Positions 7,625 through 55,461 of a stretch of DNA of 64,000 nt are shown here, piece by piece. The position numbers and the translations under genes are program-made. Within the stretch, counting starts at the first letter, position 1, and each line of letters starts with the position of its first letter. Origin of the DNA: a virus (taxonomy: Duplodnaviria > Caudoviricetes); IMG/VR virus record IMGVR_UViG_3300005611_000001. One strand, written 5' to 3'. Below the pieces are notes generated by a model. That model saw only the letters and a program-made list of their open reading frames with translations, ran no database searches and had not been told where the DNA came from.

Positions 7625-9031
7625 ATGATTTTCAATACCGAAAAGAAGTACACCTACTCGTCCCTCCCTGGCGCTGAGCGTTCCGTCACTATCCGTGACT
7701 TTCTGTTCAACTATCTGCCTACCATTAATTGCATTCCCGAAGGTCAGCGCCTTGAGACTGAACCCAATATGATTGGTATCAGCCAGCCTTCGAAGGCGCA
7801 GGGCATCATCCAGTCTCTGTTTATGGGCATGGATCTTGGTACTATCGTTCTTTGTCAGTCTCAGGACGGTAAATGGTCTTTTGATTCCGTAGACGGCGGT
7901 CACCGCAAGCGAGCCATCAAGGCGTTCATCAACAACGAATTTCCCATGTTCAGCGACGGTCGCTACTTCCGAGACCTGACTGAGGAAGAGCGAGCCCGTT
8001 TCCTTTCGTCCGAGCTAACCGTGATCGTCTATGAAGGACTGACTCCCGAAGATATCGCCTTTATCTTCCAGTCCTTGAACAAGACTACTGACGTTAATCA
8101 CATGGAGATGCTCAACTCATACAACGTGATTCCCGTTGCAAAGATCATTCGCGAAACAGCGCGAGTAGTCTACGGCGTGAATAACGACTGCCATCCTCTC
8201 TTTGGAAATTACGAAAAGAATGGCACAGTCAAGTATGATTATCTCAACTTCGATAACGCTCGGTTGAAGATTGACAAGAAAGTGGCTCGTATCTTCTATC
8301 GCTACTATAATGGCGGCGGCCTTGGTCCGTGCGCTGAAGAAAATCTTGAAGAAATGTACAATGCATATCCTGACCTTCAGACTATGCTCAATCTGAAAAA
8401 GAAAGTAAACAAGTGTCTGTCTTTCATTCGCGATATGGCTGAGGTAGTCAACAAGACCTTGAGGCGTGGGCTGACAGAGAAAGAGTTTCGTATCTTCGAA
8501 CGGCTCTACATGTTCATGGAAACTGAGTTTGGCGATTTTAAGATCAATGATAAGACTGAGTTCGGTAAAGCAGTCATTTCCGCTTACCTGCCGTTCTTCA
8601 AGATGCCGTACGATTCACAGATTCCAGCGCTTCTTAAGAAGAGCCCGTTCGACAGCACGAAGACCATCGGCAAGCAGTTTAATGATGCTCTGAACGTATA
8701 CGACACTCTAGAACACGTTGAGTTTCCGATTGTCGAATTGATCAAGCGTCCAGAACTGAAGATTGAGCAACTGATCACGATCAAAGACAAGAATCGCTTG
8801 TTCAGCCGTACTGATCGTGAAGCCAAGCTTGCTGAGCAGGGATTTGTCTGCGCCATCGATGGCAAGCCGCTGTCTTTCGAAGAAGCTGAAGCTGCACACA
8901 TCATCGCACACAGCGTTGGCGGCCGTACCGTCTACAAGAACCTTGCGATGGTGCGAGCCAAGTACAATAAGATGATGGGCTCTATGTCAGTAGACGATTT
9001 TAAGAAAGTGTATATGCCTGTAGCTGCTTAG
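7625..9031 (+). CDS. DUF262 (ParB/Srx-like) plus C-terminal HNH nuclease, GmrSD-like
   Basis: DGGHR, FQSLN, C-terminal CAIDG...AAHIIAHSVGGRT..NL. Confidence 0.8.
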   Translation: MIFNTEKKYTYSSLPGAERSVTIRDFLFNYLPTINCIPEGQRLETEPNMIGISQPSKAQGIIQSLFMGMDLGTIVLCQSQDGKWSFDSVDGGHRKRAIKAFINNEFPMFSDGRYFRDLTEEERARFLSSELTVIVYEGLTPEDIAFIFQSLNKTTDVNHMEMLNSYNVIPVAKIIRETARVVYGVNNDCHPLFGNYEKNGTVKYDYLNFDNARLKIDKKVARIFYRYYNGGGLGPCAEENLEEMYNAYPDLQTMLNLKKKVNKCLSFIRDMAEVVNKTLRRGLTEKEFRIFERLYMFMETEFGDFKINDKTEFGKAVISAYLPFFKMPYDSQIPALLKKSPFDSTKTIGKQFNDALNVYDTLEHVEFPIVELIKRPELKIEQLITIKDKNRLFSRTDREAKLAEQGFVCAIDGKPLSFEEAEAAHIIAHSVGGRTVYKNLAMVRAKYNKMMGSMSVDDFKKVYMPVAA

Positions 9032-9139
9032 AACAAAATGTTCTGAAAAAGTTCTTGTATTTTGTTTCGAAATCGTTTATTCTGGTACTTGTCAGGTGGG
9101 GAGAAGCGCTCCCCACCACTTCAAACTCGGAGATATATC

Positions 9140-10087
9140 ATGGCACATATGGTTGAAACGATGGCTTACGCAGGTGAGCTTCCCTGGCACGGTCTCGGTA
9201 CGAAAGTGCCCGCTGACCTCACCCCTCGTCAGATGATGGACAAAGCTGGTGTTGACTGGCGCGTCAATCTGGTACCCACTTACGCTGATGTGAACGGGTC
9301 GAAAGTTTCGACTGGTCAGAAGGCTCTCGTGCGCGAGACTGACAATCGTGTACTGACCAACGTCGGTGGCAACTGGAACCCCGTGCAGAACGAAGAAGCG
9401 TTTGACTTCTTCACTGAGTACTGCCTTGCAGGTGATATGGAAATGCACACTGCTGGCTCTCTTGCTGACGGCAAGATCGTCTGGGCTCTCGCTAAAGTGA
9501 ACGAGTCGTTTGATGTGCTTGGCGAAGACCGTGTAGACTCTTACCTGCTCTTCTCTAACCCGCACCAGTACGGCAAGTCGCTGAACGTGCGCTTCACGCC
9601 CATCCGTGTGGTGTGCAACAACACGCTGACTCTCTCGCTGAGCCAGAGCGCTAAGAACGAGGTGACGCTGAATCACCGTCGGGCGTTCGATCCTCAGATG
9701 GTCAAAGATCAGCTTGGCATCGCCCACGAGAAGTTCGCTATGTACCGCGAAATGGCTCGGTTCCTGTCTAAGAAGCGCGCCAAGAATGGTGATGTGATTG
9801 CGTACTTCAACAATGTCTTCCCGCTGGCGAACAGCAAGACCGAGGTGCGTGACTACGCTGACCTCTCTCGCACCGCTAAGCAAGCGTATGATGTGCTTGA
9901 GACGCAGCCTGGCGCTGACATGGCGATGGGCACGTGGTGGAACGCAGTGAACGCTGTGACCTACCTGACCGATCACCAGCTGGGTCGCTCTGCTGACACT
10001 CGGATGCAGTCTGCATGGTTCGGTGCGAACCAAGCGAAGAAAGTCCGTGCAATGAACCTTGCTGTGGAGATGGCCGAAGCCGCGTAA
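9140..10087 (+). CDS. DUF932/DUF945 family protein
   Basis: MAYAGELPWHGLG, TPIRVVCNNTL signatures; GGAG SD before ATG 9140. Confidence 0.88.
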   Translation: MAHMVETMAYAGELPWHGLGTKVPADLTPRQMMDKAGVDWRVNLVPTYADVNGSKVSTGQKALVRETDNRVLTNVGGNWNPVQNEEAFDFFTEYCLAGDMEMHTAGSLADGKIVWALAKVNESFDVLGEDRVDSYLLFSNPHQYGKSLNVRFTPIRVVCNNTLTLSLSQSAKNEVTLNHRRAFDPQMVKDQLGIAHEKFAMYREMARFLSKKRAKNGDVIAYFNNVFPLANSKTEVRDYADLSRTAKQAYDVLETQPGADMAMGTWWNAVNAVTYLTDHQLGRSADTRMQSAWFGANQAKKVRAMNLAVEMAEAA

Positions 10088-10602: not shown

Positions 10603-10610
10603 TATAAATA
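10603..10610 (+). promoter_or_regulatory. T4-type late promoter
   Basis: TATAAATA upstream of the exported-protein operon. Confidence 0.75.
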
Positions 10611-10647
10611 CCCATACATTAGTCATTCTTTTGTATGGGTATTTGCT

Positions 10648-11196
10648 ATGCGTAAAATATTATTCTTTGCTTTGTTTGCACTGAGCTATGCTGCTCAAGC
10701 TGCTGAAGTGGGTCCGATCATCACTGAAGCAACCACTAACAGTACCGTCACCACGCAGTCTGATACGACGACCACTCTAAAGTCGCCGCCAGCGTCTGCC
10801 ATTTCGCCTACCATCAACACTTCGAACTCTGATCTATGTACCTTCGGAGTTGCTGGCGCGATTCAGACGCAGATTCTCGGCATCTCAACGGGTACTCAGG
10901 TGACGGACGAGAACTGCGAGCGCCTGAAGCTAGCCAAGACGCTCTATGACATGGGTATGAAGGTGGCTGCAGTGTCCACCATGTGTCAAGACAAGCGCGT
11001 CTTTGACGCAATGATGAGCGCTGGTACGCCGTGCCCATACGATGGAATGATCGGCGAAGACGCTAAGGCTGCATGGGCTGTGAACGAAGACCAGCAACCA
11101 AATGCTAAGAAGCAACAGGAGGGGATCAGCGATGGGTCTAAGACGCTGCTGGGCGGCGCTGGCGTTGCTAGCCTGCTCTTCTTACTGCTACTCTGA
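10648..11196 (+). CDS. Exported Cys-containing protein with C-terminal membrane anchor
   Basis: Signal peptide, SPPASAISP, four Cys, hydrophobic C-terminus. Confidence 0.8.
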   Translation: MRKILFFALFALSYAAQAAEVGPIITEATTNSTVTTQSDTTTTLKSPPASAISPTINTSNSDLCTFGVAGAIQTQILGISTGTQVTDENCERLKLAKTLYDMGMKVAAVSTMCQDKRVFDAMMSAGTPCPYDGMIGEDAKAAWAVNEDQQPNAKKQQEGISDGSKTLLGGAGVASLLFLLLL

Positions 11197-12004
11197 AGAA
11201 GTCTTTGGTACGACTCAGAACGCAGCCTCGACCGGGCTAAACTGGGTCATGACTGAGGTTCTACCGCAGCAAGCTGGCTTGACAGTCAATAGTGTCATCT
11301 ATCGTTACACCAGTGTCAAGCAGACTGAAGATGATATGCTGGTCCATGTGCAGAATCAGAACGCAGAAGCACCTGGATTCATCTTCCGAGAGACTGACGA
11401 CTGGTCTGGTCTGCCTGGTAACACGATCAACAAAGCAATCCCGGTTGCAAACATACCCATACAGTTATGGGGCGACGGGTCGATTGAAGTAGAAGGGAAG
11501 GGTGAAGTGACGAATGCTTCGGTGCTGTATAGCTTTCAGTTCGACCCATGCTTCGATCCTCAGAGCAATCCGTCATGCCCTGGCTATGTCGATCCGTTTG
11601 AAATGCTAATGAGTGAGATCAGTGTGAAAGATCCTCTCGACGATGATCTTCTGCAAGCAGAGTTAAGACGCAAATCGAATCTTGATGCACAAGAAGAAGA
11701 TGAGGAAGAGCGCCAGCGCCGTAGAATGAAATCAGATGATAAGGGAGACGACGACCGTCTTGAGGCTATCATGGGCATCGTCAACACTTCGCTACTCGCA
11801 ACAGAAGCAGCAGCGAAGCATGCTGAGCTTGCAGCACTAAATAGCATACCACAAACCTATTTTGCGGTGATCCCAGATACTAAATACGAAGAGACAGTTG
11901 TATTAAAAGACGGGAGGTTGCCGGAAAATAAAAGAGCAAGACGGGTCGGATTTGCACAACAATTGCTTCATGAAAAAATGGTGTCTTCTCAGTATGAAAA
12001 ATAG
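11132..12004 (+). CDS. Exported protein with beta-rich N-domain and charged C-terminal coil
   Basis: GGAGGGG SD, signal peptide, DPCFDPQSNPSCPGY. Confidence 0.75.
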   Translation: MGLRRCWAALALLACSSYCYSEEVFGTTQNAASTGLNWVMTEVLPQQAGLTVNSVIYRYTSVKQTEDDMLVHVQNQNAEAPGFIFRETDDWSGLPGNTINKAIPVANIPIQLWGDGSIEVEGKGEVTNASVLYSFQFDPCFDPQSNPSCPGYVDPFEMLMSEISVKDPLDDDLLQAELRRKSNLDAQEEDEEERQRRRMKSDDKGDDDRLEAIMGIVNTSLLATEAAAKHAELAALNSIPQTYFAVIPDTKYEETVVLKDGRLPENKRARRVGFAQQLLHEKMVSSQYEK

Positions 12005-12040
12005 TCAAAAAATCGACACCACGATTAAGGAGAACAAGTA

Positions 12041-12541
12041 ATGTTCAAGAAATCCCTGGCTGTAGCAGCAGCCACACTTATCGGGATGAATGCTATAGCT
12101 GAAGATGTGACGATCACAGGGACAGTGGCTTCGAAGTGTGTAATCACAACAGACACTGTTGGTATTTACGGAAACCCTACTCCTAGTGAGCTTAGCACTG
12201 CACCTGCAGACGGTGGCGTTCTGCCCATCGTTCGCTATGATGTGCTTCAGGCCAACTTCTACAAAGCCCGCATCACTTATCCAGAGTCTTTCTCTGAGAG
12301 CCCTGCGCTTGATGATGTTGTGACATGGACTGGTGATGTGACGGTTGCAGAAGTCACTGATGCTGGCATGTCCGCATATGACGCAGCAAAGGTTGAGTTT
12401 AACAATGTGACCGAAGTTGATCTAACGATTGCGGGCAGCACATGGTTCCAAGTTGAATCGACTGCAGACTATGGTGTGACAAAAGCATTTCCTGCAGGTA
12501 CTTATCGCGCGATTGTAAGCGCAGACTGCATCGCACTGTAA
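12041..12541 (+). CDS. Fimbrial/pilin-like subunit
   Basis: Signal peptide, mature N-terminus EDVTITGTVASKC, C-terminus PAGTYRAIVSADC. Confidence 0.65.
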   Translation: MFKKSLAVAAATLIGMNAIAEDVTITGTVASKCVITTDTVGIYGNPTPSELSTAPADGGVLPIVRYDVLQANFYKARITYPESFSESPALDDVVTWTGDVTVAEVTDAGMSAYDAAKVEFNNVTEVDLTIAGSTWFQVESTADYGVTKAFPAGTYRAIVSADCIAL

Positions 12542-12544
12542 TCC

Positions 12545-12919
12545 GTGCGCTATATTATGATGGCGGTGGTGATGTCGCTGAGTGGGTACGCGAGTGCCCA
12601 CCAGTGGCTTCCTACTTACCCTAAGCTTGAGCCGTCTTATGTTTCGGGTGTGCTTAGAGTAAAGATGGAGCTATTTAATAGTCGAAGTGATGTACGATAC
12701 TACGAGTTAAATGTTTACGATAAAGACTTTAGGTCGATAAAATTTGCAACACAAGAACGAATCATTGAAGTTGATCATTTGAAGCGAAAGAATGTTGAAA
12801 TATACATTCGTGAACAGGACAAAGGCATTGCGACATATGTCTGTTCTAAATCTAAATTACTGAAGGGTACAGGCGGAGCGACACTCGTCTCTTCGCAGAT
12901 ATGCTCAAAAATAAAATGA
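12545..12919 (+). CDS. Periplasmic pilus chaperone-like Ig-fold protein
   Basis: Signal peptide, beta-strand pattern, position after the pilin-like gene; GTG start. Confidence 0.5.
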   Translation: MRYIMMAVVMSLSGYASAHQWLPTYPKLEPSYVSGVLRVKMELFNSRSDVRYYELNVYDKDFRSIKFATQERIIEVDHLKRKNVEIYIREQDKGIATYVCSKSKLLKGTGGATLVSSQICSKIK

Positions 12920-13338
12920 GATTATTATTAGTTTTGTTATTGGTGATTTGTGGAAATGCATTTGCTCAGAGCAGTTTGAATCTTGCAATTCCACAAAGCC
13001 CACAAAGTTTCCAGCAAGACAGAGTTCGCGCTGGTGATCTTGAATGTTCAGCAGCAATTGGTTCGTCAACAAATGTTGAGTTTGGGGTTGTTGGAATATT
13101 AAATCAAAACAACCCATTTCAAAATCAGTTTGGTATTGATCCCATAACTGGGCAATACTCTGATAGATTTGTAAGGGATGTTGGTGTATATGGTCGAATT
13201 AACATACCGATCGGTGCACCTAAAGAGCGATTAAATTGTAATTTACTTTATACTTTAGAATTAGAAAGGCGCAAACTTGAAGTGATGAAATTAAGGCAGG
13301 AGATCGCACAATTAAGACGACTTCAGTTTGAGGAATAG
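12916..13338 (+). CDS. Exported protein with C-terminal coiled coil
   Basis: Signal peptide, DRVRAGDLECSAAIGS, LELERRKLEVMKL. Confidence 0.75.
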   Translation: MRLLLVLLLVICGNAFAQSSLNLAIPQSPQSFQQDRVRAGDLECSAAIGSSTNVEFGVVGILNQNNPFQNQFGIDPITGQYSDRFVRDVGVYGRINIPIGAPKERLNCNLLYTLELERRKLEVMKLRQEIAQLRRLQFEE

Positions 13339-13340
13339 AA

Positions 13341-13886
13341 ATGTCTGACAAAGATTTAGGCGAGAGTCTAGAAAACTTTGAAGATGAAATAGAGAATTTA
13401 AAAAACACTAAGTTTACATTATTTGGTATTGCAATGACACCTACAACAATAGGTGCTGCATTTGCATTAATTGGTACAATACTTGGTACTCTCTATGGTG
13501 GGTTTGAAACATATAAAGCTTTTCAAGAAATGGCTGAGAAGTTAGAAGTATTAGATATTGAGGCTGTTGAAGCCCGTAATGTTGCTATTGAAAGAAAACT
13601 TGATGATGCTATTGATTATACTCGTGATATAAAGAATAGCCTTAAAGATGATATAATTAGAATTGAACAAGTAACAGAACGAACAAGTAATAGAGTTAAA
13701 ACAGTACAAGATGAAATAGACCAGCGATTAAGATTATTATCTGATATTAATCGTGAAACAGAAAAAGATGTCCGAGATACTATGCGAGACACCGAGAATC
13801 GCATAGAGTCGAAGATGGAGAAGCTGGACAAAGACCTCCGTGAGACACTGCAAAAGGCTCTTGACAATCCTCTTGCTGACGGCTAG
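13341..13886 (+). CDS. Membrane-anchored coiled-coil protein
   Basis: TM segment near residues 30-55, long heptad region. Confidence 0.75.
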   Translation: MSDKDLGESLENFEDEIENLKNTKFTLFGIAMTPTTIGAAFALIGTILGTLYGGFETYKAFQEMAEKLEVLDIEAVEARNVAIERKLDDAIDYTRDIKNSLKDDIIRIEQVTERTSNRVKTVQDEIDQRLRLLSDINRETEKDVRDTMRDTENRIESKMEKLDKDLRETLQKALDNPLADG

Positions 13887-14055
13887 CGCTGGATGCGCTA
13901 CGACTGACACGCTGGAGCAAGCTAGGAACGCGCAGGTGCGACACCTGCGCGAAGCCTGTATGAACCGTGCAGTCCAATCTACCCTTCCCTCACCGCTCGT
14001 CAGAGCGTCCACAGTGCACCAGTGCCACGCATGGGCACGGTCTCAGGTGCAATAA
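13840..14055 (+). CDS. Putative lipoprotein overlapping the previous gene
   Basis: MRHCKRLLTILLLTASAG-C lipobox-like; GTG start. Confidence 0.45.
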   Translation: MRHCKRLLTILLLTASAGCATTDTLEQARNAQVRHLREACMNRAVQSTLPSPLVRASTVHQCHAWARSQVQ

Positions 14056-16485: not shown

Positions 16486-16670
16486 GCGCTAAATATGCTG
16501 TGAAAACACCCTTTGAAGATGATTTGTTATTTGTCACTGAGGGCGATTCTAAATTTCAACTACGAATCAAAACATTTAATACGGCTGAAGATGCACGAGA
16601 TTTTGCCAAAGACTTTGGTGAAGGCTGTGTTGTTGTCGAATTAGATGACGACTACGAGTTACTACTATGA
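16482..16670 (+). CDS. Hypothetical protein
   Basis: Coupled ORF, GTG start. Confidence 0.65.
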   Translation: MSAKYAVKTPFEDDLLFVTEGDSKFQLRIKTFNTAEDARDFAKDFGEGCVVVELDDDYELLL

Positions 16671-17077
16671 TAAAAATGTTGTGGCGAATTGCTGGGTTGT
16701 TCTTTGTTGGTTGTGCGTACATTGGTGCAATCGTGCCCGGTATTCCCACAACGGTCTTTCTAGTTCTTGCTCTGTGGTGCTTTAGTAAGAGTTCTGAAAA
16801 GTTACGACTCTGGATTTGGGAGCATCCTATCTTCGGTTCGTATGTGCAAGACTGGTCACATAAAAGAATATACCCCACCCGAGCCAAGTATATCATGCTC
16901 AGTTGCTGCGCAGCGAGTTACACTTGGCTTCTATACATACAACTCAAACCCATTGCTCTGATCGGCATTGCAGCGTTCATGCTGTTCTGGCTATTTTGGG
17001 CATGGCGTTATCCAGGTTCGCACGAAGAGTATGATCGCCGAGTAGCGCAAGGAGAAAAAATCGGATGGCTAAAGTGA
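16667..17077 (+). CDS. YbaN/DUF454 family inner membrane protein
   Basis: GAIVPGIPTTVFLVLALWCFSKSS...HPIFG signature. Confidence 0.85.
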   Translation: MIKMLWRIAGLFFVGCAYIGAIVPGIPTTVFLVLALWCFSKSSEKLRLWIWEHPIFGSYVQDWSHKRIYPTRAKYIMLSCCAASYTWLLYIQLKPIALIGIAAFMLFWLFWAWRYPGSHEEYDRRVAQGEKIGWLK

Positions 17078-28202: not shown

Positions 28203-28649
28203 ATGTTTGCGTTTATTAAGATGTTGCCTTTGATTCTTTTGCTTGGTGGAGGCGCATATGCCTATCATACAACCAAAGTGAGTGAGTTGTCAAGTGTCAT
28301 TTCACAAAAAGAAGCAGCAATCACCATTCTAGAAACAAATCAAGAAAAGTTGCTTGAAGCAGAAGCGAAGAATCGCAAAGCTCTTGAGACGATGCAGGCT
28401 GATCTAGAGAAGCAGCGTCAAGCATTCACTAATCTTTCTACCCAACATGCTCAACTTGCAAAAGAGCGTGATGAGTACATGTCTGTCTTTCGTAAACACG
28501 ATCTGACTAAGCTTGCTAGACTCAAGCCAGGTCTAATCGAACCCCGTATTAATAAAGGCACTGAAGCAGTATTTCGACAAGTAGAACAAGATAGCCGTGA
28601 AGTAGACCAAGCTGATGATGAAGTGGAGGTTGCAAATGAAGAAGGTTAG
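28203..28649 (+). CDS. Putative i-spanin
   Basis: N-terminal TM then coiled coil; overlaps a lipoprotein gene. Confidence 0.65.
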   Translation: MFAFIKMLPLILLLGGGAYAYHTTKVSELSSVISQKEAAITILETNQEKLLEAEAKNRKALETMQADLEKQRQAFTNLSTQHAQLAKERDEYMSVFRKHDLTKLARLKPGLIEPRINKGTEAVFRQVEQDSREVDQADDEVEVANEEG

Positions 28650-29097
28650 TGTTATACTGCTCGCGTTGATTTTGTCTGGATGTTCTACATTCGGGCTGCC
28701 TAAGTTCGGTTTTGGTAAAAAGCCTGAACCCGAGCCTCTCCCCCCTAAGATTGTGACAGTGACTGAGACTGTGCCTCTGCGCATCTATCAGCCACCGCTA
28801 CCTCAAGAAATCGCTCTTGAGAATGTGAAGTTCTTTGTGATTACTAAAGACAACTTAGAAGAACAAACTGCAAAGATTGAGAAAATTCTGGGTGGTGACT
28901 TGGTAGTGTTCGCTCTGACACCTCAGAGCTATGAGAACATGGCGTTTAATCTGCAAGAGATTCGTCGCTATGTTCGCCAGCAGAAAGAGATTATTCTATA
29001 CTACCGCGAAGCAACAACTGGTGATGAAGGCACTGACGCTGATGACTGGCTTGAAAAGAACAAAGAAGTAGTAGAAGAACAGCAAAAGCCTAATTGA
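28636..29097 (+). CDS. Putative o-spanin lipoprotein
   Basis: LILSG-C lipobox, Pro-rich linker. Confidence 0.65.
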   Translation: MKKVSVILLALILSGCSTFGLPKFGFGKKPEPEPLPPKIVTVTETVPLRIYQPPLPQEIALENVKFFVITKDNLEEQTAKIEKILGGDLVVFALTPQSYENMAFNLQEIRRYVRQQKEIILYYREATTGDEGTDADDWLEKNKEVVEEQQKPN

Positions 29098-54279: not shown

Positions 54280-54605
54280 TCAAAAAGCCAGACTTCGATG
54301 ATTGTGTTGAAGTTTTACAAGATGGCGTGAAAGATACGACTAGTGATCTTTCTGCCTTTCTTGGCGAAGATGAAGTAATGACAGATAACTGGCGTGACCA
54401 CTGGAAGGGCATGCCTGAGTTTGTGCAAGAAGACAAAAAGCCATACAAGAAAATTAATGTCTGCTTTCAGACCAAAGAAGACTTCGAAGCTTTTCGTGCT
54501 TTGATGCAGCAGCCTATTACTGATAAAACCAAGACGATTTGGTATCCGCCATTTGATCGTGAGAAAAACTCTCTGTTTACTTGGGTAGAAGATGAAGCAG
54601 AGTAA
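54276..54605 (+). CDS. Small protein of the type found next to TAGT/GREB1-like glycosyltransferases
   Basis: WKGMPEFVQED...F.TKEDF..F...Q.IT.KTKTIWYP. Confidence 0.55.
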   Translation: MIKKPDFDDCVEVLQDGVKDTTSDLSAFLGEDEVMTDNWRDHWKGMPEFVQEDKKPYKKINVCFQTKEDFEAFRALMQQPITDKTKTIWYPPFDREKNSLFTWVEDEAE

Positions 54606-55461
54606 ATATCCAATCTATGTAATTTCAAAGAATCGCGCGGAGACGATGTACACCTCGCGTTCTCTGAACGATATGGGCTGTGAGCATACTATCGCTGTCG
54701 AACCTCAAGACGTTGATGCATACAATCGTGCATTCTACAAGTTTGGTATTACTACTGCAAAACTGCTAGAACTGCCGTTCAGTAATCATGGCATGGGTTC
54801 TGGACCTGCTCGTAATGCATGCTGGGAAGACTCTATCGCGCGAGGTGCGAAGCGTCACTGGATTCTTGACGACAACATTCAAGACTTCTATCGTCTGCAT
54901 AATAATGCACGGTATCGTGTCAAGTCACCCGTGTTCTTTCGCGTGATGGAAGACTTTGTAGATCGCTATAAGAATGTAAGACTTGCAGGTCCTCGCTATC
55001 GTTTCTTCTGTGCGTCTGATCAGAAGTATCCTGCGTTTATTAAGAATACTCATATCATGAGTACGATTCTGATTGATAATTCACTAGACATTCGTTGGCG
55101 CTCCAAGTATAATGAAGATATTGACCTGTCTCTGCGTGTTCTGAAAGGTGGTGACTGCACGATTCTGTTTAATGCGTTTCTGCAAGGCAAGTGCGCAACT
55201 CAGACTGTCACCGGTGGTAATACTGAAGAAGTCTATCAAGCAGATAAGTTAGACTACGAAGACACCACGCAAGAGAAGACCATGGTGCTGTACAATCTGC
55301 ATCCCGATGTGGTGCGTGTTGTGAAGCGTTATGGGCGCTGGCACCACGATGTGAACTATGATCGTTATCAAATCAACAAACTACAGTTCGTAGACGGATT
55401 TGAATTACCGAAGCGCATAAACAACTACAATATGAAACTGCTGAAGAAAGTTAATGTTTGA
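54592..55461 (+). CDS. TET-associated (TAGT/GREB1-like) glycosyltransferase
   Basis: PIYVISKNR, HWILDDNI, KYNEDIDLSLR, GGNTE. Confidence 0.7.
   Translation: MKQSKYPIYVISKNRAETMYTSRSLNDMGCEHTIAVEPQDVDAYNRAFYKFGITTAKLLELPFSNHGMGSGPARNACWEDSIARGAKRHWILDDNIQDFYRLHNNARYRVKSPVFFRVMEDFVDRYKNVRLAGPRYRFFCASDQKYPAFIKNTHIMSTILIDNSLDIRWRSKYNEDIDLSLRVLKGGDCTILFNAFLQGKCATQTVTGGNTEEVYQADKLDYEDTTQEKTMVLYNLHPDVVRVVKRYGRWHHDVNYDRYQINKLQFVDGFELPKRINNYNMKLLKKVNV

Follow-up and report, generated by a model that had tools for sequence, protein, structure and literature searches.

The 64,000-nucleotide (nt) stretch of DNA from an uncultured aquatic phage analyzed here (the window; IMG/VR record IMGVR_UViG_3300005611_000001, Caudoviricetes) carries, between positions 10648 and 13886, six genes that all lie on the plus strand with almost no intergenic space. 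Put most safely, these genes constitute a conserved, phage-specific envelope module that stands behind a late-promoter motif and includes a chaperone–subunit-like pair. Beyond this statement we favor, at a probability of about one half, a reading in which the module forms a phage-specific periplasmic chaperone–subunit device, whose action on the host envelope comes late in infection, and not a classical pilus. We found no description of this six-gene module in the literature; new here are its division into two sub-modules, its presence in cultured Pelagibacter phages, and the finding that the pilin fold proposed for one of its proteins by an earlier interpretation of the same DNA (the sequence-only reading) is poorly supported.

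The six-gene operon and its chaperone–subunit-like pair

Inspection of the operon bears out the sequence-only reading's account of six coupled genes after a late promoter. A T4-type late promoter motif, TATAAATA, lies on the plus strand at 10603-10610, 38 nt 5' of the first ATG, which opens gene 1. The window holds six copies of the motif where 2.1 are expected, and 29 of 58 distinct relatives likewise have a copy no more than 130 nt upstream of gene 1. The description of this phage group as T4-like is fair, since T4 gp23, gp15, gp32 and gp59 are found on related contigs, and because of the upstream motif the module is probably expressed late. The junctions between successive genes consist of a 65-nt overlap (genes 1 and 2), gaps of 36 nt (2 and 3) and 3 nt (3 and 4), an ATGA overlap (4 and 5) and a 2-nt gap (5 and 6). 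Directly after the promoter motif, the 5' leader contains an 11-bp stem-loop on the plus strand (10608-10645; RNAfold free energy, dG, -16.8 kcal/mol; z -8.1 against shuffles) that starts inside or just past the motif and ends 2 nt 5' of the gene 1 start codon. Similar hairpins of other sequence occupy the same place in eight relatives (L009, L011, L038, L039, L043, L045, L048 and L053), such that nine of 24 leaders, the window's own counted, have a hairpin at a dG of -6 or below; the element may act as a 5' stabilizer or in translational control. Metatranscriptome contigs from four runs match parts of the operon at 90-99% identity, and one contig of 1135 nt covers genes 4-6; DNA carry-over is possible, and these contigs are not counted as proof of expression.

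The products of genes 1-5 each begin with a basic n-region followed by a hydrophobic h-region, and the gene 6 product, in which a signal peptide is absent, has a hydrophobic segment at residues ~26-55, in agreement with the earlier description of five signal-peptide proteins and one membrane-anchored protein. A crude signal test was passed by six of the 76 plus-strand open reading frames (ORFs) of at least 100 amino acids (aa) in the window, three of which belong to this cluster; genes 2 and 4 fail it solely through the choice of start codon. In alignments, the N-terminal ~20 residues vary yet remain hydrophobic, and the mature parts are conserved, with invariant cysteines in gene 3 (C33/C163), gene 4 (C100/C120), gene 5 (two), gene 2 (two) and gene 1 (four). 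From these patterns we infer that the products of genes 1-5 are exported via signal peptides. A lipoprotein reading of genes 2 and 5 was rejected because the cysteine in the signal region is not conserved.

The clearest structural assignment in the module concerns gene 4 (12545-12919, plus strand; 124 aa), which opens with a GTG codon, a start backed by homologues that begin MR or MK, and encodes a signal peptide followed by a PapD-like immunoglobulin (Ig) domain. We collected 135 representative homologues, and an AlphaFold2 (AF2) model made from an alignment of 52 diverse homologues forms one domain, with a predicted local distance difference test score (pLDDT) of 94.5. In an exhaustive structural comparison, this model matched SafB best (Z 10.8, root-mean-square deviation 3.1 Å over 105 residues), followed by FimC (Z 10.3), CfaA (9.9), YadV (9.7), PapD (9.3), FaeE (9.1) and CsuC (8.8); the solved structures that match best are thus-named first domains of pilus chaperones, with major sperm protein (MSP) domains of the same superfamily alongside. 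Foldseek returned DraB (3.7e-4) and PapD (8.4e-4), and the ESM Atlas returned PapD_N at a template-modeling (TM) score of 0.69. The model thereby supports with high confidence the assignment of the gene 4 product as a single PapD-like domain, and upholds the earlier proposal that 12545-12919 encodes a chaperone-like protein. Its invariant Cys100 and Cys120 fall on the last two strands, and chaperones of the FGL (long F1-G1 loop) type, such as Caf1M, carry an F1-G1 disulfide on their last two strands. The first residue of the mature protein, His19 (12599-12601), lies in the motif AHExTPTYP and stays invariant among homologues as distant as 25% identity; the version found in Vibrio phages lacks it. 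A copper-binding 'histidine brace' of the kind seen in CopC and lytic polysaccharide monooxygenases was considered and discarded as a main reading, as there is no second conserved histidine, the Vibrio homologues lack the first, and the fold matches are chaperones.

Immediately upstream, gene 3 (12041-12541, plus strand; 166 aa) encodes a signal peptide, a conserved free N-terminal strand (residues 21-32) and a β-sandwich closed by Cys33-Cys163. Its homologues number 973, and identity ranges from 62 to 98% among the 120 best of these. The AF2 model (pLDDT 84.8) shows a twelve-strand β-sandwich from residue 33 on, preceded by an unstructured segment at residues 21-32 (pLDDT 58 for the block 21-30), the end of which contributes to a set of invariant residues, G27, V29, S31, K32 and C33. 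Because the N-terminal strand is free in the model and yet invariant, this arrangement suggests that it is used between molecules. The sequence-only reading had called this protein a chaperone-usher pilin. The hallmark motifs on which that call was based, ITGTV..C and PAGTY, are present and conserved in the alignment; the predicted fold, in contrast, is a larger β-sandwich that resembles MSCRAMM and carbohydrate-binding module (CBM) domains best, and pilins appear as marginal Foldseek matches, namely CfaB (E 1.9e-3, TM 0.39), the PapG pilin domain and FimG. The model also matches the donor-strand-exchanged archaeal cannula protein CanA (Z 6.3), and the nearest named families among predicted structures are DUF4402 (TM 0.54-0.60), spore-coat-U and WxL domains. 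The gene 3 product thus looks pilin-like in its termini only, and a chaperone-usher pilin fold is weakly supported by the model.

Of the six-protein multimer prediction proposed earlier, the part carried out paired the mature chains of genes 3 and 4. It gave an interaction prediction score from aligned errors (ipSAE) of 0.54, where the best of three controls gave 0.03; across three runs at least 94% of the contacts agree, with a pLDDT of at least 84 for the partner. Of 80 solved complexes, 58 reach the mark used for this score, as do two of 110 mismatched pairs; those that reach it at 0.60 or under comprise seven of the 80 solved complexes together with both passing mismatches. The prediction lends weak support to binding of the gene 3 product by the gene 4 product, and its score may derive in part from the likeness of the pair to solved chaperone–subunit complexes.

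The remaining genes and the distribution of the module

Gene 1 (10648-11196, plus strand; 182 aa) encodes a signal peptide, a Thr/Ser-rich linker, a highly conserved four-cysteine domain, a charged linker and a C-terminal hydrophobic tail. In its alignment 57 columns are invariant; conservation extends to the tail, KTLLGGAGVASLLLLLLL, which probably forms an inner-membrane anchor. At 11132-11196 the tail and the signal peptide of gene 2 share DNA in different frames, an overlap of 65 nt that is conserved across relatives. In the homologue from the Pelagibacter podophage HTVC115P, the tail is kept with an overlap of just 14 nt to the next gene, so the tail is not a by-product of the overlapping frame. 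A GlyGly-CTERM or other sorting signal was ruled out for this tail, which has no NCBIfam match and lacks terminal basic residues. Gene 2 (11132-12004, plus strand, in an ORF open from 11102) encodes 290 aa counted from M11, a start backed by an ESM Atlas record and by the homologue alignment; a signal peptide, a β-rich N-domain with two cysteines and an acidic low-complexity middle lead to a conserved C-terminal domain ending ..QQLLHxxMVxxQY. Gene 5 (12916-13338, plus strand, in an ORF open from 12901; 140 aa from M6) combines a signal peptide, a small domain with an invariant cysteine pair and a C-terminal amphipathic helix (LYxLELExxRLEV..). Finally, gene 6 (13341-13886, plus strand; 181 aa) has an acidic cytoplasmic N-terminus, its one membrane segment, a charged helical periplasmic part and a conserved C-terminal ..ALDNPL.

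Family searches add little to these descriptions. Searches of Pfam and NCBIfam assigned none of the six proteins to a credible family, and PHROGs offers families of unknown function only, including phrog_20531 for gene 1 (1e-14) and phrog_37374 for gene 5 (2.6e-5). Gene 1 has no match in Pfam, NCBIfam or the PDB and gene 2 none in Pfam or the PDB, profile searches of both against PDB sequences returning only noise; the Pfam search with gene 6 gave weak matches to coiled-coil families only. When genes 2 and 5 were used in feature searches of the ESM Atlas, the matches were either viral clusters like the queries themselves or scored under 0.8.

The sequence-only reading had put forward a synteny search of marine phages and bacterial genomes as a check. 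All six genes are syntenic, as far as the contigs reach, in every one of the 84 related metagenomic phage loci examined (four from assemblies and 80 from IMG/VR), and among 185,579 species genomes the only matches lie on six short contigs of metagenome-assembled genomes. These contigs appear to be phage contamination, and the family appears to be phage-only. Each of five related phage records has a single copy of gene 3. The flanks of the module vary among the related loci, and some lineages insert extra membrane proteins. A 156-aa tail-anchored protein is inserted between genes 5 and 6 in one locus (L001, 7391-7861) and 19 related loci. An exported protein of 136-144 aa follows gene 6 in the same locus (L001, 8462-8896) and 12 related loci; it ends ..SWKVAF, which resembles an outer-membrane β-signal. 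In the window the module adjoins a DUF932 protein (9137-10087; Pfam 8e-40), which is found on either side of the module in 34 of the 84 related loci.

Comparison of gene orders divides the module in two. In more distant T4-like relatives the genes run 1-2-(64 aa)-6-3-4-5, and another T4-like lineage carries genes 3-4-5 alone, after T4 gp15. On account of this alternative order and of the solitary trio, the operon is best described from its gene arrangement as a composite of sub-module A (genes 1, 2 and 6) and sub-module B (genes 3, 4 and 5). Cultured Pelagibacter phages carry sub-module A in the absence of genes 3-5. In HTVC115P, gp54 is a gene 1 homologue (60% identity over the cysteine domain), gp53 aligns with the C-terminal ~60 residues of gene 2 (hhalign E 3e-5), and gp49 is a full-length gene 6 homologue (BLASTP 2e-20); in the Pelagibacter myophage Mosig, genes 202-200 resemble genes 1, 2 and 6, the likeness of 201 and 200 being judged by eye only. 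Homologues of the gene 1 domain include Mosig_00202; for gene 1 only, they extend to HTVC023P-type phages and roseophages (gp53 of CRP-810), with distant matches in Achromobacter phage JWAlpha (gp25) and Ralstonia phage RSP15. The trio of sub-module B is present in 128 Vibrio phage records, directly after genes of tail-fiber size, and the cultured phages that carry it include PS14A.1 and 1.205.O. Its members align with genes 3 and 4 (hhalign E 2e-4 each, both cysteines aligned) and with gene 5 (tblastn 8e-5), in the same order and with identical cysteine positions; a tblastn search with gene 3 found no match in 50,697 cultured phage records. In the window, unlike in those Vibrio records, genes 1, 2 and 6 accompany the trio, which lies among T4-like accessory genes behind a late promoter motif.

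Public metagenomes hold 973 clusters of gene 3 and at least 4885 of gene 5 at 90% identity, and IMG/VR holds more than 580 module loci, which makes the module one of the more common gene sets in aquatic phages that lack annotation; Pfam and NCBIfam contain no family for any of its proteins. The occurrence of its parts in cultured Pelagibacter (HTVC115P and Mosig) and Vibrio phages makes its function directly testable.

Proposed mechanism and rival explanations

In the mechanism that we favor, sub-module A would supply two inner-membrane-anchored periplasmic proteins together with a secreted protein that has a long acidic middle, and sub-module B would supply three periplasmic proteins, among which the gene 4 product, with its single PapD-like domain, holds the β-sandwich gene 3 product. 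This hold would likely be exerted by β-strand complementation, involving the free N-terminal strand and the C-terminal Gly-x-Tyr strand of gene 3, and the gene 5 product would serve as a third partner. The operon contains no usher-sized ORF, as the sequence-only reading had noted for β-barrel genes, and five related phage records, which include one of 219,676 bp rated 100% complete and another rated 91%, give no match to Usher (PF00577), CsgG (PF03783) or Secretin (PF00263). As these searches turned up no phage-encoded outer-membrane pore, the products are taken to stay within the periplasm or against the inner face of the outer membrane, where they would alter the envelope late in infection, most likely such that superinfecting phages are excluded or receptors are masked, the latter sparing progeny from debris, or, as the next most likely effect, such that envelope breakdown is controlled at lysis. 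Taken as statements of biological role, superinfection exclusion or receptor masking is a tentative possibility, lysis control a rather improbable one, and a true surface polymer a doubtful one. Of the pilin/chaperone system that the sequence-only reading had envisaged, then, the chaperone half is supported and the pilin half is weak; the surface appendage is unproven, a periplasmic role being more likely.

Several observations weigh against the mechanism just set out. The gene 4 protein lacks the second domain of a pilus chaperone, and Pfam returns neither PapD_N nor PapD_C at E ≤ 1 for any of the six proteins. The highest Z scores for gene 3 (7.0-7.7) belong to MSCRAMM N3, CBM and macroglobulin domains, and a chaperone-usher pilin is absent from its top 50 structural matches. 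At 0.54, the complex score falls where a pass is wrong more often than it is right, unless the pairing was probable to begin with. The product of gene 1, 2 or 5 could be an unrecognized outer-membrane component, and the module products could possibly leave through a host exporter. Lastly, export, the mode of gene 3–gene 4 binding, localization and biological role are all points that we infer.

Comparison with established systems places the module close to several of these and within none. Chaperone-usher systems, especially those of the FGL class (Caf1M/Caf1, SafB/SafA and DraB), likewise set a PapD-fold periplasmic Ig-like protein beside a small exported β-sandwich subunit with pilin-like termini. 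The module differs in that its 124-aa chaperone-like protein comprises a single domain where theirs comprise two, it has no usher, the fold of its subunit is not clearly that of a pilin, four extra conserved partners accompany the pair, a sequence-level family match is absent, and the carriers are lytic phages, not cells. Small exported or membrane proteins by which phages act on the host envelope include Llp of T5, Cor of phi80 and T1, and Sp and Imm of T4; llp lies by the receptor-binding gene in T5. The module resembles these receptor-masking and exclusion proteins in consisting of exported phage envelope proteins, and the Vibrio trio stands beside genes of receptor-binding size as llp does in T5; those systems comprise one or two proteins, whereas the module comprises six, and it is not known to be related to them in sequence or fold. 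Closer in setting are the curli (type VIII) secretion modules that pelagimyophages and HTVC023P-type podophages carry, the role of which is unknown and for which aggregation ('sibling capture'), superinfection defense and a pore have been proposed (PMC7029224, PMC9599517). These too are multi-gene exported envelope sets of marine myo- and podophages, widespread in ocean viromes, but they are made of other proteins and bring their own outer-membrane pore, which the present module does not. Identity with the published curli module was rejected because CsgG is absent from the five related records and none of the six proteins matches CsgF, CsgG or curlin in Pfam; nor does any of the six match Secretin.

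One alternative explanation holds the module to be a lysis device: gene 6 would act as an i-spanin-like protein, and the remaining exported proteins would serve as its outer partners or would regulate the disruption of the envelope; we consider this rather unlikely. Two-component spanins are exemplified by Rz/Rz1 of phage lambda and PseT.3/PseT.2 of T4, and the topology of gene 6, an anchor followed by a periplasmic helical part, is alike, although a coiled coil is indicated only by composition and weak family matches. Gene 6 also stands behind the late promoter motif, and roseophage CRP-810 has a gene-1-like protein and a small anchor-plus-helix protein two genes from its lysozyme. A lipoprotein ORF lies at or after gene 6 in ten of 68 loci, but is absent from the other 58, and the lack of a conserved lipoprotein partner weakens the spanin idea. 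The window itself has a doubtful 71-aa ORF (13840-14055, plus strand) that overlaps gene 6 at its end and contains LTASAGC, a lipobox-like sequence; among the relatives, a homologue was seen in L042 alone, and the ORF probably lies outside the conserved module. In nine other loci, the lipobox-type ORF at or after gene 6 has 127-144 aa and is unrelated to the 71-aa ORF. The idea that gene 6 and the 71-aa ORF together make up a spanin pair was rejected as that ORF is not conserved. Further against a lysis device, six conserved genes far exceed a spanin pair, the flanking window genes searched include no endolysin or holin families, and sequence conservation is high (as in the 120 best gene 3 homologues of the 973), where spanins usually diverge fast.

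A second alternative, which we hold to be unlikely, is a true surface fiber or capsule-like polymer, in which gene 3 subunits would polymerize by donor-strand exchange after release from gene 4. These subunits would cross the outer membrane via a host pore or an unrecognized pore made by gene 2 or gene 5, and would serve in aggregation, adhesion or as a shield. The termini of gene 3 do resemble pilin donor and acceptor strands, with an alternating V-I-G-V-S-C at the N-terminus and a G-x-Y with alternating hydrophobic residues at the C-terminus, and the weak Foldseek matches to CfaB, the PapG pilin domain and FimG, the matches to DUF4402 and spore-coat-U models and the CanA match point the same way; whole curli secretion modules in pelagiphages furnish a published precedent (PMC7029224, PMC9599517). 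Set against this, usher, secretin and CsgG are absent from the five related phage records, one of them rated complete, and genes 2 and 5 match no outer-membrane family. In addition, phages that bear module parts have diverse cultured hosts (SAR11 and Vibrio), which makes dependence on one host exporter awkward. A related proposal, to which we give a rather low probability, is that the module specifies a phage-only, minimal usher-less pathway for a fiber or lattice: the one-domain PapD-like protein would prime a β-sandwich subunit, and partners anchored in the inner membrane would guide this subunit as it polymerizes by strand exchange, either within the periplasm of abundant marine bacteria or on their surface. 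If this were true, the host envelope would be physically rebuilt during the last phase of infection. More generally, if the proteins rebuild or shield the host envelope, the module bears on how marine phages compete for cells, on the behavior of infected cells before lysis, and on chaperone–subunit pairing without an usher.

It is very improbable that the hydrophobic N-termini are not signal peptides and that the proteins are cytoplasmic or virion components (fiber parts or assembly factors), since, although the trio adjoins tail genes in Vibrio phages and in one T4-like relative and the case for export comes from sequence and not experiment, five neighboring proteins share an n-region, an h-region and a small-residue pattern, variable but hydrophobic as is typical of cleaved signals, their mature parts carry invariant cysteine pairs, and the gene 4 fold is that of a periplasmic protein family.

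Other features of the window

Outside the module, a long co-directional run of genes for sugar and modification enzymes extends over 37078-57984. It includes two radical SAM proteins (one with a SPASM domain), a hexapeptide acyltransferase, an FkbM methyltransferase, an NAD-dependent epimerase/dehydratase, a HAD hydrolase and a TET-associated glycosyltransferase (54592-55461), a content that suggests DNA hypermodification or glycan synthesis. Lipoprotein-type N-termini are present in the ORFs at 16667-17077 (..FFVGC) and 28615-29097 (..LILSGC), the latter just upstream of the ribonucleotide reductase genes. At 7625-9031 the window encodes a 468-aa protein with weak DndB/ParB-like and C-terminal HNH signals (phrog_1583, 3e-14).

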